The position numbers and the translations under genes are program-made. 64,000 bases of DNA from a phage. The first letter of the stretch is position 1; each line of letters begins with the position of its first letter. The stretch lies in sequence record PX969468.1. One strand, written 5' to 3'. The notes beneath the pieces were generated by a model that did not search any database, was not told where the DNA came from, and was given only the letters and a program-made list of their open reading frames with translations. Positions 12,848-29,802 of the stretch are shown here, one piece after another.

Positions 12848-12854
12848 TACATAA

Positions 12855-13139
12855 CTACCAGGTTACTGTCAAGTAGGCAACCGTGTTATTTTTCTCTGGA
12901 GAGATGCCAACAACATCTACCTGCAGACCTCCTGCCCTCAAATCCCCAACAATATGCGGGAAGTAATCTGAGAGATGTGAGGGTAGATTTATCGAAAATC
13001 CGCATCCCAGAAAGCCTGCTAACGCTTTATTTTGTATCTCCCCTACAATCGCATCATAAATGGAGTTAAGCTCGTCAGGGAGCGTTACAGGACGTTTTAG
13101 CGCTAACTGGTGCAACTTGTCCTTAGCACTCATTTTCAT
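12855..13139 (-). CDS. hypothetical protein
   Basis: Start moved to MKMSAKDK..., which overlaps the upstream stop as ATGA. Confidence 0.45.
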   Translation of the reverse strand: MKMSAKDKLHQLALKRPVTLPDELNSIYDAIVGEIQNKALAGFLGCGFSINLPSHLSDYFPHIVGDLRAGGLQVDVVGISPEKNNTVAYLTVTW

Positions 13140-13669
13140 TTCAAATCTACCTCTGGTGGTGCCAACCACATAAATGGCGGCAAGTCTAGACGGTTTTTCT
13201 TGTCCCATACAAAATATGCATATGCCTGCCCATCCGTTCTACCATTGGATTGGAATGACGGGCGCTTAGATATTGTGATCACAGTGGTAGGTGCATTATC
13301 AAGCCACCATTCAAATCTGGCCTTGCTTTCCAGAAAATTAAGACGCAAAAGCATAATAACTACGTCGGCATCTTTCAACGCCTTGTCCACAAACTCACGG
13401 GCCAGGCTGTACGGCGGGTTGGTGATAATACAGTCAACATGGTTGTATTCTGTATTCAGATAGTCAACACCTTCTTGGATTTCTCCCCATGCAGATCCTA
13501 ACGGCATACGGGAGTAGAACACACCTGAGGCACTATTCCTGCAAGGCTCTAAGTAGGTCCAGTCTTCTGGGAACGGAATAAGGTCATACAGCCCTTCTGC
13601 ACACCACTCCGGTGTCACATACTCATCGTAGGCGTTACGTTGTTCATCAGGTTTTCTAGCACAAGTCAT
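13136..13669 (-). CDS. DNA N6-adenine (or N4-cytosine) methyltransferase, small phage Dam-like
   Basis: ITNPPY catalytic motif (motif IV of amino-methyltransferases). Confidence 0.55.
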   Translation of the reverse strand: MTCARKPDEQRNAYDEYVTPEWCAEGLYDLIPFPEDWTYLEPCRNSASGVFYSRMPLGSAWGEIQEGVDYLNTEYNHVDCIITNPPYSLAREFVDKALKDADVVIMLLRLNFLESKARFEWWLDNAPTTVITISKRPSFQSNGRTDGQAYAYFVWDKKNRLDLPPFMWLAPPEVDLK

Positions 13670-13720
13670 GCAAATCTCCAGATCATAAAAGCCCTCCGAA
13701 GAGGGCTTTAGAATTAATGT

Positions 13721-14770
13721 TTAAGCTTCTTCGACAATTCCTGCACCCAGGATTTTTTCATTGAGCTCTTTTGCTGTTTTAATAATATTGTCCACCAGAC
13801 GCTTGCGCGTCTTATCTTTCACCTTAACCTCTTCACCGCCGTTCAGAGTAGTCTTCAATTGAGACAGAATATCCTGAAGTTCAACGACAGAGAATCTCTG
13901 CAGATCTTCTGAAGTAATCTCACCCAGGGCAATTCTGACGGTCTCGCCACTTTCCATCTGCAGATTCAGGAACACAGTGTGAACATCACCTTTCGAACCA
14001 CCCGCTTTTGCAGATTCAACAGCATGAACTAACTCATCTAAAGATGTGCACTGGTGAATCTCCGGAAGACCTGCTTCACCTAACACGCCTTCTTCATCAC
14101 CTTTTGCCAGAAGCTTTTTCGGTTTTTGTCCGTTCTGGATGCGTTGTATGTTGCCTTCATCCAGAATAATAGCTCCAGTGCGTGCTGCCAGCTCTTCTCC
14201 GTCCAACCACACTTCGCCACCAGCTGTGATGGATGCGATCTCATCTTCTGTCAGCACCCCACCGTAGTATTTTTCGATCAGGCGTTCAAAACGTTTTTTC
14301 CAGTAGCTGACCTGAGTATTCATGTTCACACCGTTACCATAAGTGCCACCTTGATAGTAGTGGAACATAAACTCTGTGTCCGGAGCCACAGTACGTTCTT
14401 TACAACCAAGCCATAAGATTGTTCCAGCAGAGCAGCACATCCCTTCAGCATGTGCAACAACGCTTGCCTGAGACTCGCGGAATGCCTGCAGATAAGCCAT
14501 TGCAATGTGCACGCAACCTCCAGGGCTATTGATGATCACCCGAATGCTTTCTTCCGGCTGAGCCATACGGATCGTCTGCAGACGAGACATATGATCTTGT
14601 AAGTCTTCCAAATCGTCGATATAAAGAACGTGGTCAACAACAGGTGTTGGGTAGCTGTATGTTTCCATAATACCACCCGGCATACCAAACATTTTATTAC
14701 TCATAGGTTCGAAACCGTTCTGTTTTTCTTTCATGCCGTGTACCATGGTGCTGCGAGGTGTTAAATTCAT
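13721..14770 (-). CDS. ClpP/S49-fold serine protease with charged coiled-coil C-terminal extension (possible prohead protease-scaffold type)
   Basis: INSPGGCVHIAMAYLQAF and GMCCSAGTILWLGC resemble ClpP/SppA motifs; the C-terminal third is charged and helical. Confidence 0.55.
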   Translation of the reverse strand: MNLTPRSTMVHGMKEKQNGFEPMSNKMFGMPGGIMETYSYPTPVVDHVLYIDDLEDLQDHMSRLQTIRMAQPEESIRVIINSPGGCVHIAMAYLQAFRESQASVVAHAEGMCCSAGTILWLGCKERTVAPDTEFMFHYYQGGTYGNGVNMNTQVSYWKKRFERLIEKYYGGVLTEDEIASITAGGEVWLDGEELAARTGAIILDEGNIQRIQNGQKPKKLLAKGDEEGVLGEAGLPEIHQCTSLDELVHAVESAKAGGSKGDVHTVFLNLQMESGETVRIALGEITSEDLQRFSVVELQDILSQLKTTLNGGEEVKVKDKTRKRLVDNIIKTAKELNEKILGAGIVEEA

Positions 14771-14830
14771 GAGAAATCCTTAATATTGGAAGTTGAAAGC
14801 TATTTATTTAAACCTGATTCACATTTACCT

Positions 14831-15142
14831 TTATTTAGCAATCACTAGGGAATACTTACGATTGTTAGAAGCATCACAGCTCAATGATTGCCAGTCTACC
14901 ACATACCACGTATCATTGTCAACAATTACTTTATCGCCTGTTCTGTAGCAGGTACTGCTTTCAATAATCCGAGACTCGATAAAGAATCTGTGTCGGCGCT
15001 CACGTAGCAACGCTAAGTTGATTATATCACCACCACTGTCCTTGATCCACACATTCTTGGATCCTTTATTTGCCAAAATTGTCTCGCCGTTGTAGACAAA
15101 CAGGCAGTATATTTTATTCAGTCTCTCTTGTATTGTAGCCAT
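14831..15142 (-). CDS. hypothetical protein
   Basis: Track ORF; AGGAGA upstream; downstream of promoter 15173..15201. Confidence 0.5.
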   Translation of the reverse strand: MATIQERLNKIYCLFVYNGETILANKGSKNVWIKDSGGDIINLALLRERRHRFFIESRIIESSTCYRTGDKVIVDNDTWYVVDWQSLSCDASNNRKYSLVIAK

Positions 15143-15172
15143 ACTATCTCCTTCTACTTGTCTTGTCCGATA

Positions 15173-15201
15173 ATAATATCTAAAGCTTACCTGTTTGTCA
15201 A
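15173..15201 (-). promoter_or_regulatory. sigma70-like promoter (TTGACA-17-TATTAT)
   Basis: Consensus hexamers at 17-bp spacing on the minus strand upstream of CDS 14831..15142. Confidence 0.5.
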
Positions 15202-15245
15202 CAACTGTTTTAGATATTTAAGGGTGGAATAACCACCCTTCTATA

Positions 15246-16034
15246 TTACTCGGAAACAGGGGTCCAAATATGATTTGCACGATCCTCGATAAGATTGAGT
15301 GCAATCTGACGACCCAACCCGGAACGAACGACATCATCTGGACTATCAAAGCTGATCATTCCAACCTCAGGATCTGGATGGCGAGTAAAGAAATCCGTCA
15401 CCCATGCAAGGCCAGATTTACCAGGGATGTCACGTTGGCTATTATCACCCATAATTACAAGAGTGGCTTGATCAGAGATCCTTGTGATAATTGACAACAT
15501 TTCTTCAGGGTTAGTTTGCTGTGCCTCGTCAATCAGGACAAAGCATCGCTCATCGAAACTACGACCACGAATGCTTTCAACTTCACAAATCTCTATACGA
15601 CTGTTCTGACCGTCTCCCAGCATTGCGGCAAAAGCACCTTTGCCAACACGGCGACAAATCGTGTCCATCATGCTTCGAAGATAGGGCCACAGTTTCTGCA
15701 TTGCATTTCCAGGTTTAAATCCTGAAGTCTTTCCTGTCTGAACGTAAGGGCGTGCAACAATGATCTTATCAATCTCGTTCTTACGCAGAAGATCACCTGC
15801 ATATGCAGATGCCATGAACGTCTTACCGGATCCAAACACACCGTTTACAATGATAATCTTACGCGACCCTAGATAATCAAGATACTTTTGCTGCTTTTTA
15901 TTCATTGGTCGGAGAGCTGGAGCGGTGTGCTCTCGTTCGTCAGCAAATTTTTCAGCAGCCTTACGCAGGCGATCAGATTTGCGAGCCTCTCTAGCTTCAT
16001 CACGCATGCGTTTTGTTTCTTTAGCTCGACCCAT
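15246..16034 (-). CDS. phoH: PhoH-like ATPase
   Basis: Walker A GVFGSGKTFMA, Walker B VLIDEAQ, and overall PhoH-like sequence. Confidence 0.75.
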   Translation of the reverse strand: MGRAKETKRMRDEAREARKSDRLRKAAEKFADEREHTAPALRPMNKKQQKYLDYLGSRKIIIVNGVFGSGKTFMASAYAGDLLRKNEIDKIIVARPYVQTGKTSGFKPGNAMQKLWPYLRSMMDTICRRVGKGAFAAMLGDGQNSRIEICEVESIRGRSFDERCFVLIDEAQQTNPEEMLSIITRISDQATLVIMGDNSQRDIPGKSGLAWVTDFFTRHPDPEVGMISFDSPDDVVRSGLGRQIALNLIEDRANHIWTPVSE

Positions 16035-16072
16035 GTTGGGACTCCTTTCAGATTGAGATGTGTCAAGTGCTT

Positions 16073-16423
16073 TTACTGCAATAGTTTTTCAATAGCCGCT
16101 TCCATACTGCTTGCAACAGCCTGAACTCGGATATTCATCTCTTCTTGGTGGATCAGCTCCTTAAGCTCTTTAATGGTAAATTCTTTAGAGAAACCTTCCA
16201 CCATAATCTTGTGTAAGGCTTCTTGCGTGTCTACCTGCAAGAACTTTTCCAGTTTGTTGGCAGAGGCTTCTAAATCAGCCCGAATGCGAGGGTCATCTGT
16301 GCGATTCAGCATTAGGCGTAAGCCATCAAGATTAGTAGAAATAGCGTCTGCATGTTGAGTAACTAACCGTGGCAAAATGAGATCTACAAACTTATTAGCC
16401 AAATCGATACGTTCTTGTGTCAC
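16073..16423 (-). CDS. hypothetical protein
   Basis: Track ORF; GTG start overlaps the stop of the upstream peptide gene. Confidence 0.45.
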   Translation of the reverse strand: MTQERIDLANKFVDLILPRLVTQHADAISTNLDGLRLMLNRTDDPRIRADLEASANKLEKFLQVDTQEALHKIMVEGFSKEFTIKELKELIHQEEMNIRVQAVASSMEAAIEKLLQ

Positions 16424-16533
16424 TGTTGCACCCCCTCTTCATCTTCATGATGTTTCTTTTCACGCTTGTGTTTTTTCTTAAGCTCAAGCGCAATCTCTTT
16501 CTTGTACGCCTTCTTCAAGGCTTTTTTAGCCAT
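16420..16533 (-). CDS. small Lys-rich basic peptide (37 aa)
   Basis: GGAGG RBS; MAKKALKKAYKKEIALELKKKHKREKKHHEDEEGVQQ. Confidence 0.45.
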   Translation of the reverse strand: MAKKALKKAYKKEIALELKKKHKREKKHHEDEEGVQQ

Positions 16534-16597
16534 TTGGCACCTCCTCTGCTTTCATTTTACGATAATTATACCTATCTAAACAAAGCTTTGTCAACAA

Positions 16598-17071
16598 CTA
16601 GTCTACCTGGACCCAACCGCCTGCTACTTTTTTAAACATTCTTTGGTTATCGCTACCTCGGAACGGTTTCTTGGTTGGTAAATCTTTTACATACTTACCG
16701 TCAATGATGATATCAGCCAGTTTAAGAACATCACTAGAGATATGGTCAAATGTGAACCCAGTATATACAAGAATAGTTTTCTTGTCACCAAATTTTTCCT
16801 TAATTTTCTCCATCAGGCTAATAATATCTGGCTCATTATAGTATGCTAAGGGTTCTCCACCCAGCAGAGAGATACCGCACACAGACGGGTTATCTAAATC
16901 TGACAAGATTTTTTGCAAGTCTTCTTCAGTGAACTCTCTTCCCTTATCTTTTGACCAAAATGCCTGATTAAAGCAACCAGGGCAAGCGTGTGGGCACCCA
17001 GATACCCACAAGGCAGTTCTAATACCTGGCCCTTCGGTATAAGATATTTCTGTGTATCCGGCAATGTTCAT
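16598..17071 (-). CDS. nrdG: anaerobic ribonucleotide reductase activating protein (radical SAM)
   Basis: CxxxCxxC-type cluster (GCPHACPGC), GGEPL motif, NrdG size, adjacent to nrdD. Confidence 0.8.
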   Translation of the reverse strand: MNIAGYTEISYTEGPGIRTALWVSGCPHACPGCFNQAFWSKDKGREFTEEDLQKILSDLDNPSVCGISLLGGEPLAYYNEPDIISLMEKIKEKFGDKKTILVYTGFTFDHISSDVLKLADIIIDGKYVKDLPTKKPFRGSDNQRMFKKVAGGWVQVD

Positions 17072-17193
17072 AGATACTCCGCATCACATTCAGGACAATG
17101 CCAAATAAAATCATCAAGTGCCTTGCACCAACGAAGATTGCACTTACAACCGCAGTGTTTACAAATTTTTACTTTAAAGCCACCAGATGACAT
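17068..17193 (-). CDS. small Cys-rich zinc-ribbon-like protein (41 aa)
   Basis: AAGGAG RBS at 5 nt; seven Cys (CKHCGCKC...C...CPEC); stop overlaps the nrdG start. Confidence 0.5.
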   Translation of the reverse strand: MSSGGFKVKICKHCGCKCNLRWCKALDDFIWHCPECDAEYL

Positions 17194-17254
17194 AACAACT
17201 CCTTAATTTACAACGGACTGAAGGGCTAGAATAAAGCTGGCCCTTTGTGTGTTA

Positions 17255-18415
17255 TTATTTATTAGCAAATTTCTTCAAATGTTCTTCTACTAGCTCGAAT
17301 ACCTCCGGTCTGTAGTAGAAGAACTCTCGACAGCCATCAAACTTCTCTGTGAAGTTGATTTTGTATTGGCTCAAGGCTTGGTGCATAGCTTTTTCTAAAG
17401 TTTGCATGTCGTCTGTTGTTCCTTCCCAAGTTTTTATAACATGTAGATCAGAGAATCTAGCACCAGCTTTTTTAGCTCTTTTTAACACATCTTTTCTTCG
17501 TTCATCTACCCGGACACTCACACCAATTTTCATCATAGTTGGTACTTCCAGATCGTCAACCATGATATAAAGGCTACCATGTTCATGAGATAAGAAGCCG
17601 ACTTTAGCACATTTTTGACAGCCAGCTTTTTGGTTGATGTGGACAAACGGTTTTTGTGTGAACTCCCCGTGAATCGGACAGATGATAGTGACCTCTGTCT
17701 CCCTATTAACATATTCCACCCCGGAATAATCGTATTTATCTTTATGGATAGCTCTGGCTCTTGCCTCAAACCTTTTAGCCACCTCAGATGCTTTCTTTCT
17801 CTGCGTCTTCCTACTAACCTCGGCCACCTTCTTCTTCCCGCACTCGGGGCAACCTTTTCCACTTGGTGCATGGTCATGAGGTCTTTGTGGGAAGTGAGCA
17901 CCACATGTATTACAGATTATCTCCACTTTATCATTACCGGTTTTATAATTTACAAGAGAGTAATCATACTTATCGCCATGAAGCGCTTTTGCCTCAGCGA
18001 TCCACTCTTCAGTAGTCTTTCTCTCAGTTCCTCCACACTTACGGCAACCCCCCTCGCGGAGATGGTTATCAGGCTTTTGCTCAAACTCGCCGTGAACAGG
18101 ACAAACAATCACAACTTTAGTTTTAGCATTTACATACTCTACCTTAGAGTAATCATATTTATAATTATACTTAGCCTCGGCCTCCGCTTTAAATTTTTCA
18201 GCAGAAGCCGCTCTTTCTGCTTCAATCTGACATTTTGGGCAACCCTGTTTTTTACGGAGGTGATCTCCAAGAGTTTTCTTAAATTCTCCATGCTCAGGGC
18301 ATATAATTACAACCTTGGTGTGTGCACCCACATATTTGACTTTGGAATAATCATATTTATCACCATGAACTGCTTTCGCCCCCTCTATAAAATCTTCGGT
18401 TGTAAGTTTTCTCAC
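17255..18415 (-). CDS. repeat protein: four tandem ~60-aa zinc-ribbon-like modules plus C-terminal T5orf172/GIY-YIG-like domain (possible mobile endonuclease-like protein)
   Basis: Four repeats of YDYSKV.YV...TKVVIICPxHGEF...HL...GCxKC; C-terminus LYIM...MKIGVS...R...DLHVIK...REFF. Family assignment is from memory. Confidence 0.45.
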   Translation of the reverse strand: MRKLTTEDFIEGAKAVHGDKYDYSKVKYVGAHTKVVIICPEHGEFKKTLGDHLRKKQGCPKCQIEAERAASAEKFKAEAEAKYNYKYDYSKVEYVNAKTKVVIVCPVHGEFEQKPDNHLREGGCRKCGGTERKTTEEWIAEAKALHGDKYDYSLVNYKTGNDKVEIICNTCGAHFPQRPHDHAPSGKGCPECGKKKVAEVSRKTQRKKASEVAKRFEARARAIHKDKYDYSGVEYVNRETEVTIICPIHGEFTQKPFVHINQKAGCQKCAKVGFLSHEHGSLYIMVDDLEVPTMMKIGVSVRVDERRKDVLKRAKKAGARFSDLHVIKTWEGTTDDMQTLEKAMHQALSQYKINFTEKFDGCREFFYYRPEVFELVEEHLKKFANK

Positions 18416-18481
18416 TGCTGAATCCTCTTAGTTCTCGTCTTTGAACTAAGGGTGCCACATCCTTGTGGCTTTTGTCAAGTA

Positions 18482-19744
18482 TCAGCAACCACAACTTCCG
18501 TAGTGCTTAACTCGCTCGATAACTTCCGCTTGCTTACCTTTATTGTAAGGACGGGAGTTAGGACTGGAAAGGTATCCAGATACACGCCTGATCACACTGA
18601 TCGTACCTTCCTCATGGTTTCCACAACAAGGGCATATAAAACCTCTTGGAGAGGCTTTAAATTCTCCCTGGAAACCGCACTTGAAGCATTGGTCAACAGG
18701 CTGGTTTATACCGAAGTACATAATGTGTTTATACCCGAAGTCAACAAGAGCCTCTAAAGCATCCAGGTTGTTTTTCAGGTTAGGTGTTTCTACGTATCCG
18801 ATGTTGCCACCAGAGGAGATCATAGCAAAACCTTCCTCATACTCCCACTTATCAAAAGGAGAGCTATTTATCCATACTGGCTGATGGAAACTGTTGGTGA
18901 GATATTCATGCTCGTGCTTCAACACTTCCGGATATTCACGATCCAGACAGGTTGCAGCTTTATAGCATAGACTCTCAGAAGGAGTGCCGTACAAGCTAAA
19001 TGCTAGTCTACTTTCCTTCTTGTATCGCTCACAAGCATCTCTCATGTGCTGAAGGATTTCAAGAGCTAAAGCCTTGTCACCCTCTCTACCCAAAATCTGA
19101 CAGGTTTCATACACACCGATATACCCAATACTGATGGAAGCGTACCCGTCATAGAAGAGTTTATCAATACTCTCTTCAGGATCCAGGCGAGCAAGAGCGC
19201 CTTCACACCACATGATGGGGTTCTGCCCTGCCTTTGTTCCTTTTAGACGATTAACCCTTACAAGGTGAGCCTCGTATGCAAGATCCAAGTATTCGTCAAG
19301 AACTGCAAAGAAATCAACACCTTCCGTCTTGGCTTTTGCCGCAATCATTGGCAGGTTAAGGCTAACAACACCTAAGTTAAATCTACCAAGGTATTTCTCC
19401 TCGCCTGTTTCCAAGTCATTGTATTTGCTAAGAAAACTCCGGCAACCCATGCTCGTTACTTTGCCATCTGTCGAGCCTGTCACTTTTCTATTTAGTGGTA
19501 CAGATACGAAGTCAGGGTAGATACGTTCTGCACAGCATTCCAGAGCTAATCGTTTCAAATCATAGTTAGGATCCCCAGGGTTCATGTTGACACCCTCTTC
19601 CAGGAAGAACAGCACTTTAGGGAACACAGGTGTGATACGTTCTTCACCAAGACCCATTTTGTGGACTTTCAAGTAGTTTTTGGTAATCATTCTACCAAAG
19701 ACCGAGGTATCCAGTCCTAAACTTAATGTGATGAATGGAGTCTG
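18482..19744 (-). CDS. nrdD: anaerobic ribonucleoside-triphosphate reductase, exon 2
   Basis: In-frame extension upstream of the track ATG reads QTPFITLSLGLDTSVFGRM..., continuing T4 NrdD-like sequence; glycyl-radical motif RVSGYL and CxxC pairs at the C-terminus. Confidence 0.7.
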   Translation of the reverse strand, partial: QTPFITLSLGLDTSVFGRMITKNYLKVHKMGLGEERITPVFPKVLFFLEEGVNMNPGDPNYDLKRLALECCAERIYPDFVSVPLNRKVTGSTDGKVTSMGCRSFLSKYNDLETGEEKYLGRFNLGVVSLNLPMIAAKAKTEGVDFFAVLDEYLDLAYEAHLVRVNRLKGTKAGQNPIMWCEGALARLDPEESIDKLFYDGYASISIGYIGVYETCQILGREGDKALALEILQHMRDACERYKKESRLAFSLYGTPSESLCYKAATCLDREYPEVLKHEHEYLTNSFHQPVWINSSPFDKWEYEEGFAMISSGGNIGYVETPNLKNNLDALEALVDFGYKHIMYFGINQPVDQCFKCGFQGEFKASPRGFICPCCGNHEEGTISVIRRVSGYLSSPNSRPYNKGKQAEVIERVKHYGSCGC

Positions 19745-20541
19745 CTGTCTCCTCTCTGTGTTTCCACAGGGCCAGACTATCTCTTACTCTACTTCAATAA
19801 GATAATAACCCTTTATTGTGAGATGCTTACCTTCGGCATTTCCTTCGATAGCCCTATGAACGTTACCTACGTTCAAATTTAAGGCTTTTGCACAGGCATA
19901 AAGTGAAGGATATTCACCCACCAAGGTTTTCCCTTTATATGCCTGCACTTTCCTATAGCACTTACCTGGACAAAGTCCTGTTCGGAAAGCATGTCTCTTA
20001 TTATCTTCCGGCAAAACCCACTCTAGGTTAGACGGATGATCATTCAATGTATTGCCATCTTTATGATTCACTTCCCAGTTTTCAGGATCTTCTGGGACAT
20101 CTGGCAAACAATACAAGGCAACAATCCTTGAGGTTTGGATTCGAATCTTTTTACCTTTGTGGTTGAAAGAGTACATATAACGGCGTTTAACATGCTTGTT
20201 ACCTTTTCCATAACCTCCCCACAATATTGGGTGTAGCATTCCACGTTTTCCGTATACGTTTCCAACCTCATCAATCACATAGTTTGATTCTTCACCATTA
20301 AGAATGATCTTTTTCATAGAGCCTCTCCATTTCGAAGTTAGTATTTCAACTAACCCCTACACTACTTGGTTCAGAAATGTTTGTCAAGCATCTCTGCCTT
20401 TCGTTAGTCGTTACAACCGTTCCAACTCCTGTAAGAACTAGTCACGGGATTGGCATAGCTTTCGCCTTAGCGTTCCCCGTTAGCCGGATTTACCGACCCC
20501 TCTTATGAGGTTAGGAGAGTTTTACAACGGCCAGTTTGTTA
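19745..20541 (-). mobile_element. putative group I intron interrupting nrdD (about 797 nt) carrying an HNH endonuclease ORF
   Basis: Exon 1 ends ...TSVNG on a U; exon 2 resumes at QTPF after a G; the interval holds 224 nt non-coding, an HNH ORF, and 39 nt. T4 nrdD is known to carry a group I intron. Confidence 0.65.
19784..20317 (-). CDS. HNH homing endonuclease (intron-encoded)
   Basis: HNH motif VNHKDGNTLNDHPSNLEWVLPEDNKRHA. Confidence 0.65.
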   Translation of the reverse strand: MKKIILNGEESNYVIDEVGNVYGKRGMLHPILWGGYGKGNKHVKRRYMYSFNHKGKKIRIQTSRIVALYCLPDVPEDPENWEVNHKDGNTLNDHPSNLEWVLPEDNKRHAFRTGLCPGKCYRKVQAYKGKTLVGEYPSLYACAKALNLNVGNVHRAIEGNAEGKHLTIKGYYLIEVE

Positions 20542-21677: not shown

Positions 21678-21680
21678 GTA

Positions 21681-22769
21681 TTAAAACTCCCAAATTTCTT
21701 CTTCAGCGTCATTAACAGTTGTGTTGACGCGGTAGTCAGTGTTCGACATTTCTTGGTTCGCCGTCTGTTGCAATGAAGGTTTCATCCACACCTGCATAAA
21801 CGGTAGAGGGTCCTTTGTTGGCGGCACAAAGTCTTTGTCGATGCCGTAGTAATCATAAATCGGTGAGCAGTTATAGTCAACCCATTCTTTAAGCAACGGT
21901 GAGTTAAGACCTATAATCGCTCTTCCTTCGCTGAAAATATAGTCACTCCAACCGTACTCTTTGGTTCGTACTTCATCAAGAATCTCTTTTAACTCCCCTT
22001 TTATCTCAAGGAAGCTTTTCTCCCATGCCGGATCATTAAGCAGGATATCAATGATGGCAAAATCACCTTTCGAATGTAGCATTTCGTCAAGCATGATTTT
22101 TTGAACAAGCTGCGCCACCTGAACAAAAATACCCTGTTCAGCTACTGCGAAAGTGCATGCAAAACTTGCAATAAACTCAATACTTTCCAGGGCTAAAAGT
22201 GCAAAAAGCGCTCTAAGAATGCATTTCCGCACAATATCTTCTTCAACACTAGAAGGATCCAGTCGGTATTTTGCACCAATAACCTCAAGCTCTTGCATGT
22301 ATTTGACAATAACGCCAGATCTGCTCAGAACGTTTTGGTTTTCCTGAATCTCTTCTATAATCTCACGGGCATTGGGGAGGCATTGTCTAACAATCTCTGA
22401 GTAAGTTAGTGCGTGAAGAACTTCAATCTCTGACTGTTTCATCAATAGAGTGAAAAGCTCACTATTAGTGATGAATGGTGAAAAGAGGCAGATGATCGAT
22501 CTTGCCGCAACGCTATCAGCCTCCCATTGCCACATCAAGGTCTGCACCATCACATCATAAGTTGACTTGGAGCATGTTACAAAATCTGAAATAGATTGCG
22601 ACAAATCCACTTCATCCTCTGCCCAGTCTTGTTCTTTTTGTTTTTTGTACAGTTCGAACAGTTGTGGATATTTTTTGTTGATAGAGTCGTACATACCCAT
22701 TTGCTGTCCCAGAAACAGCGGATAGTCACCAGTTTTATGAGCGGTGTTCTCAGCATTAAATACAGCCAT
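21681..22769 (-). CDS. nrdB: ribonucleotide reductase class I small subunit
   Basis: Ferritin-like iron-ligand pattern and R2 length; start moved to the ATG (MAVFNAEN...) with an AGAGGT RBS. Confidence 0.7.
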   Translation of the reverse strand: MAVFNAENTAHKTGDYPLFLGQQMGMYDSINKKYPQLFELYKKQKEQDWAEDEVDLSQSISDFVTCSKSTYDVMVQTLMWQWEADSVAARSIICLFSPFITNSELFTLLMKQSEIEVLHALTYSEIVRQCLPNAREIIEEIQENQNVLSRSGVIVKYMQELEVIGAKYRLDPSSVEEDIVRKCILRALFALLALESIEFIASFACTFAVAEQGIFVQVAQLVQKIMLDEMLHSKGDFAIIDILLNDPAWEKSFLEIKGELKEILDEVRTKEYGWSDYIFSEGRAIIGLNSPLLKEWVDYNCSPIYDYYGIDKDFVPPTKDPLPFMQVWMKPSLQQTANQEMSNTDYRVNTTVNDAEEEIWEF

Positions 22770-22807
22770 TATTCTACCTCTAAAATGGGGCCGAAGCCCC
22801 TTTAAAA

Positions 22808-25123
22808 TTATAGTGCACAGCTTTCGCAATACGGATCTTCAACTGAACTATCTGCAATCAAAGGGTAGTTCTTTCTGGTTTCATCTTCAGCCTGTTTCTT
22901 GGCATGAAGTTCCTCTGCCAAGGAGTCACCAGCACCAACCCTAGAGTTTAAATAATACCATGTCTTCATCCCGAATTTAGTGGCACGGATAAGGTACCCT
23001 AGCTGCTCCTTCATTGAAATTTTACCATCTTTCAACTTGGTGTAGTCTATGTATAAATCCGCGCTGATTGCCTGACCTGTGAATTTTTGAATCACAGCAT
23101 ACATATCGATCATGTCGTTAGTATCAACGTCCCAAGCCGAAGTGTAATACTCTTTCAACTCATCATAGTCAGGAACGATAAACAGCACCTGCCCTTGTGG
23201 CGACTTTTTAAAGATAATGTGCTCACGGACAGGATAAACCCCGTTAGTGGTGTTTGTTGCCAGCGAAGAGCTTTCATTAGGCATATATGCTTCAAGAACG
23301 CTATTACGTAGCCCACCATTTTCAATGATTTCTTTACGTAACCCTTCCCAATCCTGTTTAAGAGAAGGATCTTTCACCACGCTATCGACCTCTTTGTTAT
23401 AGGTGTCGATTGGTAACCAACCTTCTGGATATTTTGTTTTATGCATCCACTCGCAGACACCACGCTCTTTTGCCAACCGTAAACTTGCCTTATGCAAGCT
23501 GTAGCTGTGAAGTTCTGCAAGATCGTGAACAAGCTGTTTACTTTCAGGAGATCCGTAAGTAATCTTGTGGCTGGCAATAAAATGTGCAACGTTGGTAAGG
23601 CCAACCCCGATGGATCTGCGTTTTTTAACAGTGCTCTCCATATTTTCATACGGATATGTCATGATTTCCATAACATTGTCAATCATAAGCACCGTGTAGT
23701 ATGCAACATCCTCATACTCTTCTGGAGTAACCCTTCCAGCTACAAGGGATGACAGGAAGCACAATGCAACTTCGCCGTCATCAACATCGTGCTTGAAGAT
23801 ATTACGCATATCTGAATAGCCTTTTGTCGGGAGGGCTATTTCTGCACACAGGTTACTTGAATAGATCACATCTTTAAAAGGTGTATGTCTATTCATCTCG
23901 TCTGTCCAGTATACGTACAGCCTTCCAACCTCAGTACGCTGCGTGATCAGCTCAACAGCAAGATCTCTAGCTCGGATCCATGTTTTAGGAATACTATCAT
24001 CTTTAGCTATACGATCAACCTCTGCATCAAACTCCTCCATAGACATGGTGAAGATACCTTCATGCAGTTGAGGCGCGTGCTTATAAGAAACAAGCATCCA
24101 ATCTAAATTCTTAGCCACACGGTTGATAAACGACCTATTAATACCTATAGAGTAGTCCATGGTGTTGATTCTTTTTGAAGCAACAGTCATAGGGTTTCTC
24201 AAACGGATTAGCTCATCAATCTGCGGGTCTAGTGCAAGAAATGATACTGTTGCAGAACCGCCACGTGATTGTTGTCTGTTCTCCTTAACCCCAGCATCAA
24301 TACCTCGATAATATGGAATCTTACCCATGTGTTTAATAGTGTTACCACGAACACCATCGCCTGCAGATCTTGATGATAAATAGTAGCCGATACCTGCTTG
24401 GTTAACCGTCATTGTGTACGCAACTTCACGTGCCACACCAATAGATTTTGCTGTATCGTCAGCTTTTATTACACAACAAGATGCATACCCTGTCTTACCT
24501 GTGCGCAGCCCGTTTAAGTACGGTGTCGGGGCATTGATCTTTAAGTCGGACAGATAAGTGTATAATTTTACAACATCGTTGATACGACGTTCTTTCGGCA
24601 TATTCTTCATGACAGCCATTGCTATCCCCATAAACATCATCTGGGGAGATTCAAACAAGGTGTCTTTAAGAGTATCCTTGATCCCGTATTTGTCGCGAAA
24701 CTGTTTAAGGACTGCATAGCCATAACCGAGATCTTTACTGTGGTCAATAACAGCGTCTAAAGTGTTTAGCTCGGTAAAGCTATAGCCCATATCCTCCCAA
24801 TACCCTTTCTCAACCATGGTATTGTAAAATGATGGTAAGGAAGGGATCTTTGTAAACCCTCCAAAAGCCTCTTTATAAATCTGACCAATAAGAACACGAC
24901 CAGCCATACGGGAATGTGCTTCGTCTTTACGGCTAACACAGGAGTCTATGATAGCTTGGTTAACTTCTTTGGTTGTACATCCATCATACAGTCGTTTGTA
25001 TGCATCCAGTGCAATGTGTGACCAATTGCCGTTACCGTCGTCACCGAAAATAGCTGCCTTATTTAAACGTTCTGGATCGAATGCCACTTCACATCCGTTG
25101 CTTTTAATTACCTTGGTGATCAA
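22808..25123 (-). CDS. nrdA: ribonucleotide reductase class I large subunit
   Basis: 771 aa; N-terminal ATP-cone; C-terminal Cys pair (YCESCAL); immediately upstream of nrdB. Confidence 0.8.
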   Translation of the reverse strand: MITKVIKSNGCEVAFDPERLNKAAIFGDDGNGNWSHIALDAYKRLYDGCTTKEVNQAIIDSCVSRKDEAHSRMAGRVLIGQIYKEAFGGFTKIPSLPSFYNTMVEKGYWEDMGYSFTELNTLDAVIDHSKDLGYGYAVLKQFRDKYGIKDTLKDTLFESPQMMFMGIAMAVMKNMPKERRINDVVKLYTYLSDLKINAPTPYLNGLRTGKTGYASCCVIKADDTAKSIGVAREVAYTMTVNQAGIGYYLSSRSAGDGVRGNTIKHMGKIPYYRGIDAGVKENRQQSRGGSATVSFLALDPQIDELIRLRNPMTVASKRINTMDYSIGINRSFINRVAKNLDWMLVSYKHAPQLHEGIFTMSMEEFDAEVDRIAKDDSIPKTWIRARDLAVELITQRTEVGRLYVYWTDEMNRHTPFKDVIYSSNLCAEIALPTKGYSDMRNIFKHDVDDGEVALCFLSSLVAGRVTPEEYEDVAYYTVLMIDNVMEIMTYPYENMESTVKKRRSIGVGLTNVAHFIASHKITYGSPESKQLVHDLAELHSYSLHKASLRLAKERGVCEWMHKTKYPEGWLPIDTYNKEVDSVVKDPSLKQDWEGLRKEIIENGGLRNSVLEAYMPNESSSLATNTTNGVYPVREHIIFKKSPQGQVLFIVPDYDELKEYYTSAWDVDTNDMIDMYAVIQKFTGQAISADLYIDYTKLKDGKISMKEQLGYLIRATKFGMKTWYYLNSRVGAGDSLAEELHAKKQAEDETRKNYPLIADSSVEDPYCESCAL

Positions 25124-25350
25124 TTTGCTTCCTCCACTTCACTAACGTATTTATCAAGGCAGGTATCAGTATCTTGCTGGATAAAAGTATCCTCTTCTAC
25201 AGAGATATTTATAATTTTACCTGTATACTCGTCATAATAGACATCATCATACATTTTAATATCGTTTGTCAGGCCATTGAACCAAAGCCAACCAACATAC
25301 TCTGCCCGACTTGCAAAACCAAGATCCTTCCACTTGGAGTTATGACTCAT
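25120..25350 (-). CDS. hypothetical protein
   Basis: Start moved to MSHNSKWK..., preceded by AAGGTGGTG. Confidence 0.45.
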   Translation of the reverse strand: MSHNSKWKDLGFASRAEYVGWLWFNGLTNDIKMYDDVYYDEYTGKIINISVEEDTFIQQDTDTCLDKYVSEVEEAN

Positions 25351-25360
25351 CTTCACCACC

Positions 25361-25822
25361 TTAGCTTTCAATACCGAATAATTTTTCCAGGCGATGCAGA
25401 TCTTCAAAATTGAAAGGTTCATCAACAATATGAATATCTTCAGCCTTTTCAGATTGTTTTGTATACTTTCTTACATTAACACGATCCTCTACAGGGATAT
25501 CATACGGAAGATCTTGAACAAGCATTGCCTCACCGGGTGCTTTATCTACATCTAAAATATCTACACCGTTATACATTTGCGGGTATCTAAAGTCTGCACG
25601 CATGACACCAGCAAATACATCTGCCTTTCGATAATGTGTTGGCTTATTTTTGCATCGAACATTTTTTCCACGAAGAACATCAATACTTTTTAAATCAAAA
25701 CCTACGGCAAAGAGTGCAGCTCGGAGACCGTTTCGTGTGCGAACGTTAAACCCGGGAACGGTAGATAGGAAATCCAAAGTAACTGAAATAAATGTCTTTT
25801 TAGGAATCATAACATTACTCAT
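25361..25822 (-). CDS. hypothetical protein
   Basis: Start moved to MSNVMIPKK... (GGAGA RBS) because the track ATG lies inside the -10 element of promoter 25863..25891. Confidence 0.45.
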   Translation of the reverse strand: MSNVMIPKKTFISVTLDFLSTVPGFNVRTRNGLRAALFAVGFDLKSIDVLRGKNVRCKNKPTHYRKADVFAGVMRADFRYPQMYNGVDILDVDKAPGEAMLVQDLPYDIPVEDRVNVRKYTKQSEKAEDIHIVDEPFNFEDLHRLEKLFGIES

Positions 25823-25862
25823 ATCTGTCTCCATTTCTGGCTCACTAACAAAGTGAGCCATT

Positions 25863-25891
25863 ATTATAGATTATCTAATACTATTAGTCAA
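25863..25891 (-). promoter_or_regulatory. sigma70 consensus promoter (TTGACT-17-TATAAT)
   Basis: Perfect -10 and near-perfect -35 at 17-bp spacing on the minus strand, between thyX and the downstream gene. Confidence 0.55.
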
Positions 25892-25920
25892 CACAAAAGT
25901 TACCTATCGCTGTGATAGGA

Positions 25921-26904
25921 TTAACCTTTCACGAAGTGGTTATTAAGCAGCTGTCTGTGCTGAACCCACCCACAAAAGTTGGCAGACCAGAATTTACCAT
26001 CACGGTCTTGATGGGTTACACCTTCCTGCCAAGTACTAATGTCTTGTGTGATTTCACATGAAGACAGGTAGTAGTTTAAACGTTCCATTGCGTTATCATG
26101 ATCCATAGGTGTTGCCTGGTGTTCGTAAGGGCTTGCATGAATACGATCCCCACCAATCAACTTTTTAGCCACACTGTCTGCCTTTTCAAACGTACTGTCA
26201 ATATTTCGATAAGATACTTGTGCACAGCAACTAGCACTAATAGACAGAGCTTCTTTAGTATCAAGAATGCAGAGCTTTCCTTCTGTGTCACGTACAGCGT
26301 AGTTAAACTCTCCGTCCAAATAAACGTGCTCTACGTATGGAGTGTGCCATTGACCTGGTTTAAGGATTTCAGGAGTGCTATTCACAAGAGCTTCCCACAT
26401 ACAATTAGCCAACATCTGAATCGTAGGATCCGCATCGTGCCAGCAACGGAGATGGAAAAAATTATTCCACTCTGTGCTTGTTACAACTGTTTTCATGCGC
26501 TGAAACGGCTCCACTAAGCGGTTACATACTTGTTTATGGTAACCAGCAAGGGCGAACTTCTCTGCATGCCAAGCGGCGTTTTTTGCAGCTTCTTTCCAAA
26601 ACTCTTCAGGGGTTAGCTCCATGTCAGTGTACTCTACACGGATCTTTTGATCGTGTTCCCCACCATCTTCCATCCCTCGCTTATTTACACCGAAGCGAAC
26701 TGGCATTGCCGGATTCTCCACAATCTGTTGCAGCATCTTGCCGACAGGCACTGCACGGGAAGACATGGCGTTTCGGCTGAACACTCGGTGCGTCATAAGC
26801 TCTGAGTGAATAATTCGAGGATACTCTAGTTCAAAAGTGGTGATACGCTTACCTTTCTCGGAAATGCTGTCAGCAATGATCTTTGCAGTGCACAGTTTTA
26901 GCAT
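25921..26904 (-). CDS. thyX: flavin-dependent thymidylate synthase (ThyX-like)
   Basis: THRVFSRNAMSSRAV resembles the ThyX RHRxxxxxxxSxR signature; nucleotide-metabolism context. Confidence 0.5.
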   Translation of the reverse strand: MLKLCTAKIIADSISEKGKRITTFELEYPRIIHSELMTHRVFSRNAMSSRAVPVGKMLQQIVENPAMPVRFGVNKRGMEDGGEHDQKIRVEYTDMELTPEEFWKEAAKNAAWHAEKFALAGYHKQVCNRLVEPFQRMKTVVTSTEWNNFFHLRCWHDADPTIQMLANCMWEALVNSTPEILKPGQWHTPYVEHVYLDGEFNYAVRDTEGKLCILDTKEALSISASCCAQVSYRNIDSTFEKADSVAKKLIGGDRIHASPYEHQATPMDHDNAMERLNYYLSSCEITQDISTWQEGVTHQDRDGKFWSANFCGWVQHRQLLNNHFVKG

Positions 26905-27104
26905 TATTTAGCTCTCCTTGTTTTAATTTTGGAAATTTCGTCTGGGTTTATGTTAGCCTTAAATGCAAGGTATCTGTTGAACATATCGGAGCACATGTCT
27001 TGGGTGATCCTGGAGGCATACACCAGCTTACCTCCCAGATCATACACCTCTAGCCAGTCACCGTATCTGACTACAGGATCGCCACCTTTAGAACATCTGC
27101 CCAT
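26904..27104 (-). CDS. hypothetical protein
   Basis: Track ORF. Confidence 0.45.
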   Translation of the reverse strand: MGRCSKGGDPVVRYGDWLEVYDLGGKLVYASRITQDMCSDMFNRYLAFKANINPDEISKIKTRRAK

Positions 27105-27105
27105 T

Positions 27106-27699
27106 TCAAATACCTTCTAAAAACTTTCCTATTTTATACCAGCTATCAGCGGTATAGTCAACACTGACCTTTAACTCCTCAAATTGCTCATAAGGCGTAT
27201 CTTTTAAGATTTTAATAACTTCAGGTCGTGAAGCGAATTGGTTCAGGTATTCATGCCTGTCGTCAATTATAACATCTACAGCCACATTTCCTTTAAAATG
27301 TGTGGCGTAGAATCCGTGGCCCTGGGTGTGATCGTCCAGATCCATAAACTCACTTGTCCAACGCTTTAAGAACCTTGATTTAGATGCAAGGTGACCTTTC
27401 TTGCATACCGAGATAAATGCAAGCTTGTGACCACGAGCCACCAAATCTTTCATAACCTCAATAGCCCCCTCTTCAGGCTTAAGGAAGTCGTAGAGGAACG
27501 GATCACTCCAGAAATCAAAAGGTCCTATGATGTTTTCTTTGGGGCGATCAGGCCAATACTTTGACAGATCGTAATACATCAGCCCATTAGAAGGTTTAAC
27601 GACTGTCTTACTGGCTGGACCATACAAACGCTCCAACCACTCCCACCATGCTGTTCCTGAATCTACCAGTGTCAAATCTACATCAATTCCGATTAACAT
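27106..27699 (-). CDS. HAD-superfamily hydrolase, 5'(3')-deoxyribonucleotidase-like
   Basis: N-terminal DxDxT motif (IGIDVDLTLVDS); about 190 aa. Confidence 0.5.
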   Translation of the reverse strand: MLIGIDVDLTLVDSGTAWWEWLERLYGPASKTVVKPSNGLMYYDLSKYWPDRPKENIIGPFDFWSDPFLYDFLKPEEGAIEVMKDLVARGHKLAFISVCKKGHLASKSRFLKRWTSEFMDLDDHTQGHGFYATHFKGNVAVDVIIDDRHEYLNQFASRPEVIKILKDTPYEQFEELKVSVDYTADSWYKIGKFLEGI

Positions 27700-28310
27700 T
27701 CTTCTTGGGCCTCTTTAGCATCAATATACTTGCACACAATCTCCGATGCACATCCCCAAGGTGCACCTTCAGGATTTACAACATCGAACTCAATCCCTTT
27801 TATTCCATTCTTTTCCAGACTTAGATAGGTTCTGGAATCATTTCCCCAGTCATATCCAACACGGTGAATACGGAACAACAACAGATCTCCACCTGTGCTG
27901 TATGCGTACTCACTAAGGCATGCCAGCTCCTCTTTGAATCCACCATCGGAGTAAACAACAACCCCTTTACCTTTAGGGAAATCTTTCTTCAAGGATGTGA
28001 CTGCGGCCTTACCGAAAGCATCTTCACCAAAGATAGGTTTAATCAGATTTTCACTACAATGGATCATCCACTCTCGCGGAGAAACATGCTTACCGTCTAT
28101 CATTAAGAAAGGGCAAGGCTCTTCTTTGTAGTGGCGGTCATAAAGTGCATTCCAGAGTTGAGGAGTTACACCAGCTGCCTTAATTGCCACGCTGAAGAGC
28201 ATCTCCTTAACCTCACGATGGTGTGAGTTAGGAATAGCTTCCAACAAGAGATCTGCAATGTGATCCTTACCACTACTAGGTGGGGCGTTAAGAACAATAA
28301 TATCCATCAA
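27693..28310 (-). CDS. deoxynucleoside monophosphate kinase-like P-loop kinase
   Basis: P-loop NAPPSSGKDHIADLL resembles the T4 gene 1 dNMP kinase N-terminus. Confidence 0.5.
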   Translation of the reverse strand: MMDIIVLNAPPSSGKDHIADLLLEAIPNSHHREVKEMLFSVAIKAAGVTPQLWNALYDRHYKEEPCPFLMIDGKHVSPREWMIHCSENLIKPIFGEDAFGKAAVTSLKKDFPKGKGVVVYSDGGFKEELACLSEYAYSTGGDLLLFRIHRVGYDWGNDSRTYLSLEKNGIKGIEFDVVNPEGAPWGCASEIVCKYIDAKEAQEEC

Positions 28311-28510
28311 AAACCTCCGTGGTATTCTTCAACTGCATCAATAATACTTTTACACTCATCTACCAGCTCGTTAGCCACTACAGCATCGTCTTCCCAAACA
28401 GCCTCTTCAATCTGATCAAGCAATGATCGCATCTTATCCATCATTTCTGGGATAAAGTTTTCTGAAAAGCTGTCTGGAACTGTTAACTTTAGTGTCATTG
28501 CGGTCTCCAA
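28307..28510 (-). CDS. hypothetical protein
   Basis: Track ORF. Confidence 0.45.
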   Translation of the reverse strand: METAMTLKLTVPDSFSENFIPEMMDKMRSLLDQIEEAVWEDDAVVANELVDECKSIIDAVEEYHGGF

Positions 28511-28525
28511 TCATACTATGCGTTA

Positions 28526-28984
28526 TTAGAAGTTTGTTTTTACACGTCCCTTTTCATCTACCTCATTGTTAGCTAAAAGCGTTACAAAGTCTGTGAAACG
28601 GACATGAAGAACTCTTTTCTTGTCAAGGTATCCTAAAGCCACCCCTGAAAAATTTAGCATCAAGGGGGCTAAAGAAGCTCTAGCACTGAAATGCTGTTGT
28701 TCTACTCTTCCTACACCCTTAGTGTAGGATGGGTTAAGATTGTAAGTTCTGAATCCCAGTTTTGTTGGAGCTTTAGAATTAAAAACAACTTTATAGCGTT
28801 TCTTACTCAACTTATGCTCCAGGATAAGAATTCCCTTATCACCCTTGATAAGTTGAAAATCTGTAAAGTGCTCTTTTAAGACGAAAGGTAGTGCCAGTCC
28901 CATAGCCTGGCCTCTTTGTACCGCTGTCTCACCAAAAGCTTTTGCATCAGTAAGTTCTTTGGTCAAGTCTATGCTTTTGATCAT
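28526..28984 (-). CDS. hypothetical protein (downstream of methyltransferase)
   Basis: Track ORF overlapping the 3' end of the methyltransferase gene. Confidence 0.45.
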   Translation of the reverse strand: MIKSIDLTKELTDAKAFGETAVQRGQAMGLALPFVLKEHFTDFQLIKGDKGILILEHKLSKKRYKVVFNSKAPTKLGFRTYNLNPSYTKGVGRVEQQHFSARASLAPLMLNFSGVALGYLDKKRVLHVRFTDFVTLLANNEVDEKGRVKTNF

Positions 28985-29765
28985 ACCGGGTCTCCAAAAT
29001 GTATTGTAGTTCTTTCTTGCCTATACTCTTCATTCCAGCAGTCTTACCTGCTTCTTCTTGAAAAGAAGAATAGCATTCAGCAAACACTCTGTCAACACCG
29101 TCAACTAAAGATTTTATGAAATATGTAGATTCTTCAGATTTTGGATCATCATCACCCAATACTTTTCCAGCGTTATACCCAACACGTCTTACACAGAAGT
29201 CGTAGTCATCCGGTGTGCCAAAAGAAAATAACTTATTCTCTCCAATCTCTACAGGATCCCTATTGCACGCCTTTTTCTCCCAAATTTGGAAAACACATGG
29301 CACGTCATAAGGTTTGCCATTAAGTAAAAACGAGTTCTTAGGGCACCTTTCGCTGTAGACAAGGTGCATAGACATGTCCAGCCTGTTTGAAAAAAATATT
29401 TTTTCAAATGTCCGTGGCAAGATGAAGGCTATAGCCCCGCCAAGCTCTAGCAATGATGCACAATGGTTAAAGAATTTGCAAGCTAAAGATGAATTCTTAC
29501 CAAACGGTGGGTTACCTATGAAGACATCTGCCTTGGGGTGCACCTCCAAGAAGTTTGCCTGAATGCACGGTGTTGGTCCTTCAAATTCAGGATCTGGTAC
29601 TAAATCGTACGACAGTATCTCTGAAAATAGTTTTGAAAAAGAACCTCTTCCAGCAGAAGGCTCAACGTATGCACAATTCCCATACTTATCTTTTACTTTA
29701 CCAACAAGATATTCTGCATACTCAGGGTTTGTGTAATATTTGTCGTTGGACTCTTTCTTACTCAA
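28947..29765 (-). CDS. DNA N6-adenine methyltransferase
   Basis: Motif I-like VEPSAGRGSF and motif IV FIGNPPFG; probable TTG start preceded by GGAGG. Confidence 0.6.
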   Translation of the reverse strand: MSKKESNDKYYTNPEYAEYLVGKVKDKYGNCAYVEPSAGRGSFSKLFSEILSYDLVPDPEFEGPTPCIQANFLEVHPKADVFIGNPPFGKNSSLACKFFNHCASLLELGGAIAFILPRTFEKIFFSNRLDMSMHLVYSERCPKNSFLLNGKPYDVPCVFQIWEKKACNRDPVEIGENKLFSFGTPDDYDFCVRRVGYNAGKVLGDDDPKSEESTYFIKSLVDGVDRVFAECYSSFQEEAGKTAGMKSIGKKELQYILETRYDQKHRLDQRTY

Positions 29766-29770
29766 AGTGC

Positions 29771-29802
29771 CTCCAAAAGGAAAAGGGAGGCGCAAGCCTC
29801 CC
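29771..29802 (-). terminator. rho-independent terminator (GGGAGGC-GCAA-GCCTCCC plus T-run)
   Basis: 7-bp GC stem with GNRA loop, followed on the minus strand by TTTTCCTTTT; lies between the exonuclease and methyltransferase genes. Confidence 0.6.

Follow-up and report, generated by a model that had tools for sequence, protein, structure and literature searches.

The 64,000-nucleotide stretch of phage DNA analysed here (sequence record PX969468.1, referred to below as the window) comes, as its sequence indicates, from an rV5-like Escherichia coli phage (Vequintavirus). Its replication and nucleotide-metabolism region houses two genes for adenine methylases, MT1 (177 aa) and MT2 (272 aa), the second of which overlaps a gene for a protein of 152 residues, ORF152. 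The central finding is that ORF152 belongs to a family whose members were always found next to MT2-type methylase genes, and which appears distantly related to small Type II restriction endonucleases (REases) but lacks their catalytic residues. Both methylases were already annotated, while this placement of ORF152, as the constant partner of the MT2 family and a relative of restriction enzymes, appears undescribed. We consider it somewhat better than an even bet that MT2 and ORF152 represent an exapted Type II restriction-modification (R-M) cassette, in which ORF152 would be a non-cleaving, DNA-binding protein acting together with MT2, MT1 being a separate minimal methylase. The features concerned are the following:

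28947..29765, minus strand: MT2, gamma-type N6-adenine DNA methyltransferase of a Type II R-M family, 272 aa (PADLOC match and homologue alignment)
28526..28984, minus strand: ORF152, 152 aa, ATG start at 28984, phrog_9938; conserved partner of MT2
28947..28984, minus strand: out-of-frame overlap of 38 nt between the 3' end of MT2 and the 5' end of ORF152 (read from the sequence)
13136..13669, minus strand: MT1, minimal gamma-type N6-adenine methyltransferase homologue, 177 aa, ATG start (open reading frame and family profiles)

These three open reading frames (ORFs) are all present where the first-pass annotation, made from the letters of the window alone, had placed them, and the same genes are annotated in Escherichia phage JES2013. 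The two methylase genes are not neighbours, and the interval 13136..29765 also holds about 15 kb of unrelated genes.

MT2, a compact Type II methylase homologue

The NPPY/NPPF-type signature is a poor guide by itself: NPPY and NPPF also occur in protein and RNA methylases, and neither MT1 nor MT2 passes any Pfam or NCBIfam threshold, so that assignment to the DNA methylases required more than these motifs. For MT2, the PADLOC Type II methyltransferase model PDLC03255 matches residues 8-253 (E 2e-33), alignments with DNA methylases span 229-251 residues, and the AlphaFold2 (AF2) model is confident (pLDDT 92.8), both the fold and the full-length similarity being those of characterised DNA methylases. 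The protein (...FIGNPPFGKNSS...) carries motif X as YYTNP, motif I as VEPSAGRGSF and motif IV as GNPPFG. Among the 794 homologues found, 45 were aligned, and in these E35, P36, S37, G39, G41, D54 and N85-P-P-F88 are invariant, as is motif IV in its entirety (G84-N85-P86-P87-F88-G89); Y11-T12 of motif X, E35-P36-S37-x-G39-x-G41-x-F43 of motif I and D54, all N-terminal to NPPF, are invariant or nearly so. A C-terminal domain of about 100 aa (residues ~170-272) is strongly conserved across the family, with the signatures RRVG..AGK and TAG.RS.S..E. By these matches MT2 is a gamma-type N6-adenine DNA methylase homologue, an assignment surer than that of MT1. A fold search of BFVD with MT2 returned no characterised viral methylase that would reveal its specificity.

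The MT2 family is also common in metagenome-assembled genomes (MAGs) of giant viruses (L036, L039, L041 and other such loci). Some of its members (e.g., the gene at 4001..4792 of L013) have precomputed matches to the Pfam family PF26055 'Mtase_EDM2', the methylase-like domain of plant EDM2, which hints at a connection between viruses and eukaryotes for the MT2 fold.

ORF152, a constant neighbour of MT2-family genes

ORF152 relatives are rare. A word-indexed search recovered them only at 80% identity or more, an exhaustive HMMER scan of 1.84 billion representative proteins, with hits in only five representative clusters, added three distant relatives, and a profile search two more. Each of these five is directly followed, with overlaps of 8 nt or similar, by an MT2-type gene either 38-41% identical to MT2 or with its N-terminal motifs. 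Small genes directly upstream of two further MT2 homologues (P0012 and P0017) belong to the ORF152 family as well (hhalign probabilities 99.5% and 98.8%), and a hidden Markov model (HMM) run over the 80 best viral MT2 loci found additional members in L016, L017 and L028, together with the Vequintavirus locus L015. Altogether, about 11 distinct loci were recovered, and in all of them the family member adjoins an MT2-family gene, whichever of the two comes first: the ORF152-type gene is mostly upstream of the methylase, with overlaps of 1-8 nt, and the order is inverted in Vequintavirus (MT2, then ORF152), more distant Vequintavirus-like contigs retaining this inverted order. For example, in Phapecoctavirus ESCO13 a primase/helicase gene is followed by a 143-aa ORF152 member, the MT2 homologue and DNA polymerase I. 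Adjacency holds in marine, gut and wastewater contigs as well as in Phapecoctavirus.

The neighbourhood of the methylase family was surveyed over the 80 best viral and the 80 best bacterial MT2-family loci, with these partners:

80 best viral loci: cluster 2, 16; PDLC03550 type, 8; ORF152 type, 4; none detected, 52
80 best bacterial loci: cluster 2, 22 (20 of them downstream); PDLC03550 type, 3; ORF152 type, 1; none detected, 54

The adjoining ORFs cluster into two partner families. The one named cluster 2 (180-215 aa, invariant D...S-x-K) matches the PADLOC model REase_II PDLC03460 (E 2e-13) and has no PDB or Pfam match; tried as a homologue of ORF152, it proved unrelated (hhalign probability 0.2%). 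The second family includes ORF152 itself, whose only representative in the bacterial set lies on an 18.6-kb MAG contig resembling phage loci. REase-like genes adjoin MT2-family genes at 24 of the viral and 25 of the bacterial loci, which indicates that the MT2 family is a genuine Type II R-M methylase family, whose partners are small endonucleases of at least two unrelated families.

An apparent 395-aa ORF152-MT2 fusion (P0025), which would have argued strongly for physical cooperation of the two proteins, was rejected: an in-frame TAG at the junction had been read as Q, and behind it come AGGAGG and an ATT start codon, which makes two genes of it. More than 10 proteins of 385-399 aa in the P0025 cluster, and the call at 30..1217 of L199, are the same artefact of gene calling with an alternative code. 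One of the contigs with an ORF152/MT2 pair (L007, a 146-kb viral-like contig from JGI) also encodes an IS605 OrfB/TnpB-like protein and a Gad2-family protein (3597..4697 and 1..250).

A probable restriction-enzyme descendant without the catalytic residues

The second partner family comprises the ORF152 clade and a diverged subgroup (L019/L020, L022, L025, L030, L045 and L050, and the bacterial L104, L110 and L172), whose members match PADLOC REase_II PDLC03550, a Type II restriction-enzyme model of about 160 aa (E 3e-14 to 3e-7). The core of the ORF152 clade aligns with this subgroup over 102 columns (hhalign 91.8%, E 7.5e-7), and BLAST links the two down to 1e-7 (L003 with L050). In ORF152 numbering, all seven REase-type members have E33, D54 and (D/E/Q)65-x-(K/R)67, the spacing of about ten residues between D and (D/E/Q) being the canonical PD-(D/E)XK arrangement. 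The same positions are held in the ORF152 clade (n=11) by P33 (10 of 11), by I, V or L at 54, by K or R at 65, and at 67 by residues that are hydrophobic or otherwise non-basic, and in the ORF152 of the window by P33, I54 and K65-V-V67; hhalign agrees with the combined alignment at 33, 65 and 67. Both groups have in common P85-S86, G90, G92 (in most members) and R93. The ORF152 clade has no invariant acidic residue, and its new basic residues K65 and K89 are strictly conserved. The local E56-H-K58 of ORF152 was considered as an ExK motif and dismissed, position 56 being Q, R or V and position 58 S, G or I in other members. The AF2 model gives a secondary structure (alpha, three beta, alpha, beta) compatible, at low confidence, with a PD-(D/E)XK core.

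That ORF152 descends from a restriction enzyme is well supported by sequence and context together. Since the metal-binding and catalytic positions are replaced and no acidic residue is invariant, the protein is most likely non-cleaving, and the alignments argue strongly that it no longer cuts DNA. The 152-aa ORF had been described as being of unknown function: it carries indeed no functional annotation anywhere, but can now be placed as the partner of MT2 and a diverged REase homologue.

Is ORF152 nevertheless a remnant on its way to being lost? Among Vequintavirus relatives, its ratio of non-synonymous to synonymous substitution rates (dN/dS) is 0.02-0.07, at dS up to ~1.3-2.8, and that of MT2 is 0.04-0.13. 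Purifying selection on ORF152, strong and at least equal to that on MT2, indicates a functional protein rather than a decaying remnant. The N-terminus of ORF152 is conserved in its homologues, so the overlap with MT2 is real, as the first reading of the window had it: it spans 38 nt in another frame, and 26 nt in phages HMD-6 and ECP2309 (92% identical).

A proposed exapted cassette

The analysis establishes how the genes are arranged, that the methylases have DNA-methylase relatives, that ORF152 always adjoins MT2-family genes and is under purifying selection, and that it has homology to an REase family with the motif residues replaced. For MT2 we infer a methylating activity and a target site, and for ORF152 a loss of cleavage, DNA binding and cooperation with MT2. 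The two-gene module would descend from a Type II R-M cassette and would be expressed with the replication genes, its methylase gene being weakly translated (TTG start) and shielded by a terminator. MT2, which keeps all the motifs for S-adenosylmethionine (SAM) binding and catalysis, would most likely methylate adenine at a short specific site during phage DNA replication. ORF152 would derive from the small putative PD-(D/E)XK endonuclease of the cassette and, having lost cleavage, would probably have been retained as a DNA-binding protein working with MT2, the PS...G.GR motif being kept and the basic K65 and K89 gained. It may read or occupy the unmethylated MT2 site, regulate the methylase, or interfere with a related host enzyme. 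MT1 would be a stand-alone minimal methylase, from a family of 170-205 aa spread over many phage groups.

A bolder version, which we regard as improbable, is that large lytic phages (Vequintavirus, Phapecoctavirus and several uncultured marine and gut myovirus-like phages) have domesticated the R-M cassette as a 'mark and read' pair that does not cut. The phage DNA would receive its mark from MT2, and a nuclease-dead ORF152 would bind only the unmarked site, thus telling host or unreplicated DNA from the phage's own modified DNA with no cleavage of its own. This might serve host shut-off, the recruitment of other nucleases, or the control of replication and packaging.

Several observations weigh against the exaptation of the cassette as such. 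Searches of Pfam, NCBIfam, PADLOC and the PDB with ORF152, by sequence and by profile, gave no match, its link to restriction enzymes running through the diverged subgroup at an hhalign probability of 91.8%. The correspondence of residues is drawn from alignments at 16-30% identity, and MAFFT and hhalign disagree by one position on the D54 column. In the ORF152 clade, residue 57 is invariably D or H and residue 56 often E or Q, so that ORF152 may have a rearranged active site. No recognisable partner adjoins the methylase at 52 of the 80 viral and 54 of the 80 bacterial loci; bacterial Type II methylases function without an endonuclease, and there is no evident need of MT2 for a partner. Finally, no Vequintavirus methylome and no functional study of MT1, MT2 or ORF152 was found in the literature.

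Alternative explanations

The first-pass annotation had suggested that the two methylases serve the anti-restriction methylation of the phage genome, and accordingly both could be ordinary orphan enzymes, with ORF152 as an unrelated neighbour. Orphan methylases are common in phages, and both genes are annotated as such. In the related Certrevirus CB7, digests with ClaI have been read as Dam-type methylation (PMC7344957), which host Dam could also explain, and GATC shows no depletion in the window (352 observed for 340 expected under a maximal-order Markov model of positions 1..64000, an observed/expected ratio (O/E) of 1.03). By the same statistics GTAC is the most depleted palindrome of four letters (95 for 204, O/E 0.47) and CTAG stands at 0.58; none of the three could be tied to MT1, MT2 or ORF152, and no target emerged from the palindrome counts of the window. 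The anti-restriction claim itself found little backing. The Vequintavirinae of the BASEL collection were described as 'exceptionally susceptible' to R-M and as seeming 'to lack any effective protection' when faced with EcoKI, EcoCFT_I, EcoRI, EcoRV, EcoCFT_II and EcoP1_I (PMC8594841). Some BASEL phages (for example DrSchubert, HeinrichReichert and MaxBurger) have their MT2 and ORF152 in the 90%-identity clusters to which those of the window belong, and their sensitivity argues against a broad protection by MT1 and MT2; a narrow, site-specific protection against other R-M specificities may exist. For the orphan explanation, the main difficulty is that ORF152-type genes occur only beside MT2-family genes, at every recovered locus and in both orders, an adjacency unexpected for an unrelated neighbour, and overall we find it unlikely.

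If the two genes do belong together, what does ORF152 do? It could be an anti-restriction protein, occupying sites or forming inactive heterodimers with a host enzyme until MT2 has methylated the DNA. Its homology to an REase family paired with MT2-type methylases in bacteria (L104, L110, L172), the shared motif kept despite the loss of the catalytic residues, and its co-expression with a matching methylase would suit this role, but a search of 5,426 complete E. coli genomes turned up no MT2/ORF152-like DNA, the bacteria carrying the cutting-type relatives are for the most part alphaproteobacterial MAGs, and a protein made after DNA entry would come too late to shield the incoming genome; such a role seems to us distinctly unlikely. 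Alternatively, MT2 and ORF152 could form a working phage Type II R-M system, in which ORF152, an unusual active endonuclease, would cut unmethylated DNA of the host or of competing phages while MT2 protects the phage genome. Position and coupling are indeed the same as in the R-M-like pairs of the MT2 methylase family, ORF152 is homologous to an REase family and under strong purifying selection, D or H is constant at 57 and E or Q frequent at 56, and weak methylase starts (TTG here, ATT in L199) would be in line with tuned expression. Nonetheless, none of the E, D and (D/E/Q)xK residues of the cutting-type relatives has been retained, the clade has no invariant acidic residue and one of its members (L012) has R-H at 56-57, and ORF152 itself does not match the REase model PDLC03550; this scenario is decidedly unlikely in our estimate. 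Least credible, with only a slight chance of being true, is an RNA methylase: MT2 as a METTL5/COG2263-type m6A methyltransferase of rRNA or tRNA, ORF152 being its TRMT112-like activating subunit. Matches of this type cover about 150 residues of MT2, whereas DNA methylases align over 229-251; MT2 matches Type II methyltransferase models over its full length, its relatives stand beside restriction-enzyme-like genes, and ORF152 has no similarity to TRMT112. Exaptation of the R-M cassette is the explanation retained in what follows.

MT1, a bare catalytic core

MT1 (...DCIITNPPYS...) is assigned to phrog_799 'DNA methyltransferase' (E 8e-67) and carries motif X as YVTP, motif I as LEPCRNSASG and motif IV as TNPPY. 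A family profile was built from 12 diverse phage homologues, stand-alone proteins of 170-205 aa from P2-like, KVP40-like, Twort-like, Campylobacter and rhizobial phages; the family conserves Y17-x-T19-P20 and T83-N84-P85-P86-Y87. Against the PDB, the top match of this profile is M.TaqI (E 4.5e-5), and against the core of the MT2 family it aligns at 98.1% (hhalign) over 181 columns. MT1, which has no target-recognition domain, thus appears as a bare catalytic core; MT2 has an additional C-terminal domain. Its Pfam matches (EcoRI_methylase, Dam) are under threshold, and NCBIfam matches likewise: it scores 19.2 bits with the phage Dam family PF05869 (cut-off 28.1), matched weakly by 5 of the 12 family members, and 16.1 with TIGR01712 (cut-off 97.05). 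MT1 is probably a gamma-type N6-adenine DNA methylase homologue, less certainly so than MT2. The view of both genes as DNA amino-methyltransferases, proposed at first reading, is thereby upheld, and the HMM searches proposed with it as a check gave a full-length PADLOC match for MT2 and Pfam and NCBIfam scores below threshold for both proteins.

Motif I of MT1 (13540..13566, residues ~40-50) reads LEPCRNSASG in Vequintavirus and EPCR--ASG in relatives, EPxxGxG being found at this place in more distant family members. As LEPCRNSASG replaces EPxxGxG, the SAM-binding glycine loop of MT1 is atypical.

The surroundings of MT1 include the following features:

13688..13709, minus strand: terminator-like hairpin AAAGCCCTC-ttcg-GAGGGCTTT, then T; read from the sequence, not listed by the automatic scan
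13679-13676, minus strand: GGAG ribosome-binding site of MT1 (read from the sequence)
12855..13139, minus strand: 94-aa ORF, phrog_12158, function unassigned; ATGA overlap with the MT1 stop, translationally coupled

The hairpin sits between a ClpP-like protease gene and MT1. The overlapping gene that had been noticed behind one of the two methylases is there in the case of MT2, but MT1 has one too, the 94-aa ORF with its ATGA overlap. It was considered as a partner of MT1 and not adopted: its position 3' of MT1 is shared by close Vequintavirinae relatives alone, with identities as low as 40%, and it has neither a PADLOC nor a family match.

Expression signals and genomic setting

The other features around MT2 and ORF152 are these:

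29784..29803, minus strand: intrinsic-terminator-like hairpin of 8 pairs (6 G-C) with a T-rich tail, directly upstream of MT2
29770..29774, minus strand: GGAGG ribosome-binding site, 4 nt before the TTG of MT2 (read from the sequence)
29067..29095, minus strand: sigma-70-like site TTGACA-17-TG-TATTCT inside MT2, ~80 nt upstream of the ORF152 start
28995-28991, minus strand: GGAGA ribosome-binding site of ORF152, 6 nt upstream of its ATG (read from the sequence)
28307..28510, minus strand: 67-aa ORF, phrog_7393, function unassigned, directly downstream of ORF152
27693..28310, minus strand: gene similar to deoxynucleoside monophosphate kinases, phrog_139, downstream of ORF152 after the 67-aa ORF

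The start codon of MT2, at 29765, is TTG and not ATG. A longer version of 282 aa from the TTG at 29795 was discarded, as this start falls within the terminator hairpin and homologues begin with MSKK. Together with the ATT start after AGGAGG in the L199 homologue, and with the hairpins upstream of both methylases, the weak start of MT2 suggests a deliberately low expression. The sigma-70-like site could be an internal promoter, the region having no more sites of this kind than expected by chance. The hairpin upstream of MT2 follows the gene for a DNA polymerase exonuclease subunit, and genes for ThyX and ribonucleotide reductase are found further on; given these flanking genes, the MT2/ORF152 module is embedded among those for nucleotide metabolism and replication.

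The best match to the window is Escherichia phage JES2013 (O157 typing phage 4): the two regions concerned are 99.3% and 99.7% identical to it, and have matches in about 120 genomes of Vequintavirus (rV5-like) phages, with identities of 90-99.7%. The JES2013 counterparts are ORF115 'DNA methyltransferase' (534 nt) for MT1, ORF94 'putative DNA N6-adenine methyltransferase' (819 nt) for MT2, and ORF95 'hypothetical protein' (459 nt, overlapping ORF94) for ORF152. Exact copies of the ORF152 and MT1 sequences of the window exist in public collections, in 90%-identity clusters of 141-147 members each, and throughout its cluster ORF152 is named 'hypothetical' or 'uncharacterized'. About 20 GenBank records of the MG0656xx series, entitled 'UNVERIFIED: Campylobacter phage' (e.g., L196), show 96-99% identity with Vequintavirus genomes from E. 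coli; their stated host is Campylobacter jejuni and their NCBI classification Vequintavirus, and the host labels look unreliable.

Taken together, a 'hypothetical' gene of all rV5-like and phAPEC8-like phages, including therapy candidates and the BASEL reference phages, now has a place, and a compact methylase family is seen, in phages, giant viruses and bacteria alike, to be accompanied by small endonucleases from at least two families unrelated to each other. Why do very R-M-sensitive phages keep two methylases, and what is the purpose of the methylation, if not general anti-restriction? The exapted cassette, if true, would give a handle on both questions, and would offer a clear example of exaptation, instead of decay, in a restriction enzyme that has lost cleavage.

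Comparison with known systems

The gamma-class Type II methyltransferases to which MT2 and MT1 are compared (M.TaqI, M.BseCI, CamA and the methylase domain of MmeI) have 421-585 aa. MT2 is much smaller with its 272 aa, and its C-terminal domain of ~100 aa is conserved rather than variable, whereas MT1 has none. MT1 resembles the phage Dam type (PF05869, TIGR01712; T1/P1-like), also small, stand-alone and with (D/N)PPY, but the similarity is weak (E 1e-3 and 6e-3) and the scores are far below the cut-offs; moreover, motifs X and I of MT1 are N-terminal to motif IV, in the order of the gamma class. As for METTL5-TRMT112, about 150 residues of MT2 align, but genes of the MT2 family are found in R-M surroundings, and ORF152 is unrelated to TRMT112.

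ORF152 is like the small PD-(D/E)XK REases of the PADLOC model PDLC03550 (~160 aa) in its size, its coupling to a methylase gene and its P-S...G-x-G-R motif, and is also similar in size to R.PvuII (157 aa). It differs from the PDLC03550 enzymes in having P, I/V/L and K-x-hydrophobic instead of E, D and (D/E/Q)xK, its fold being putative. Orphan methyltransferases can remain after the decay of an R-M system, as known from bacterial comparative genomics. With such orphans MT2 would share an R-M ancestry and a neighbouring nuclease whose activity has apparently been lost; unlike in these decayed systems, ORF152 is intact, with a dN/dS of 0.02-0.07, and has kept its place next to the methylase across unrelated phage lineages, whichever the order of the two genes.

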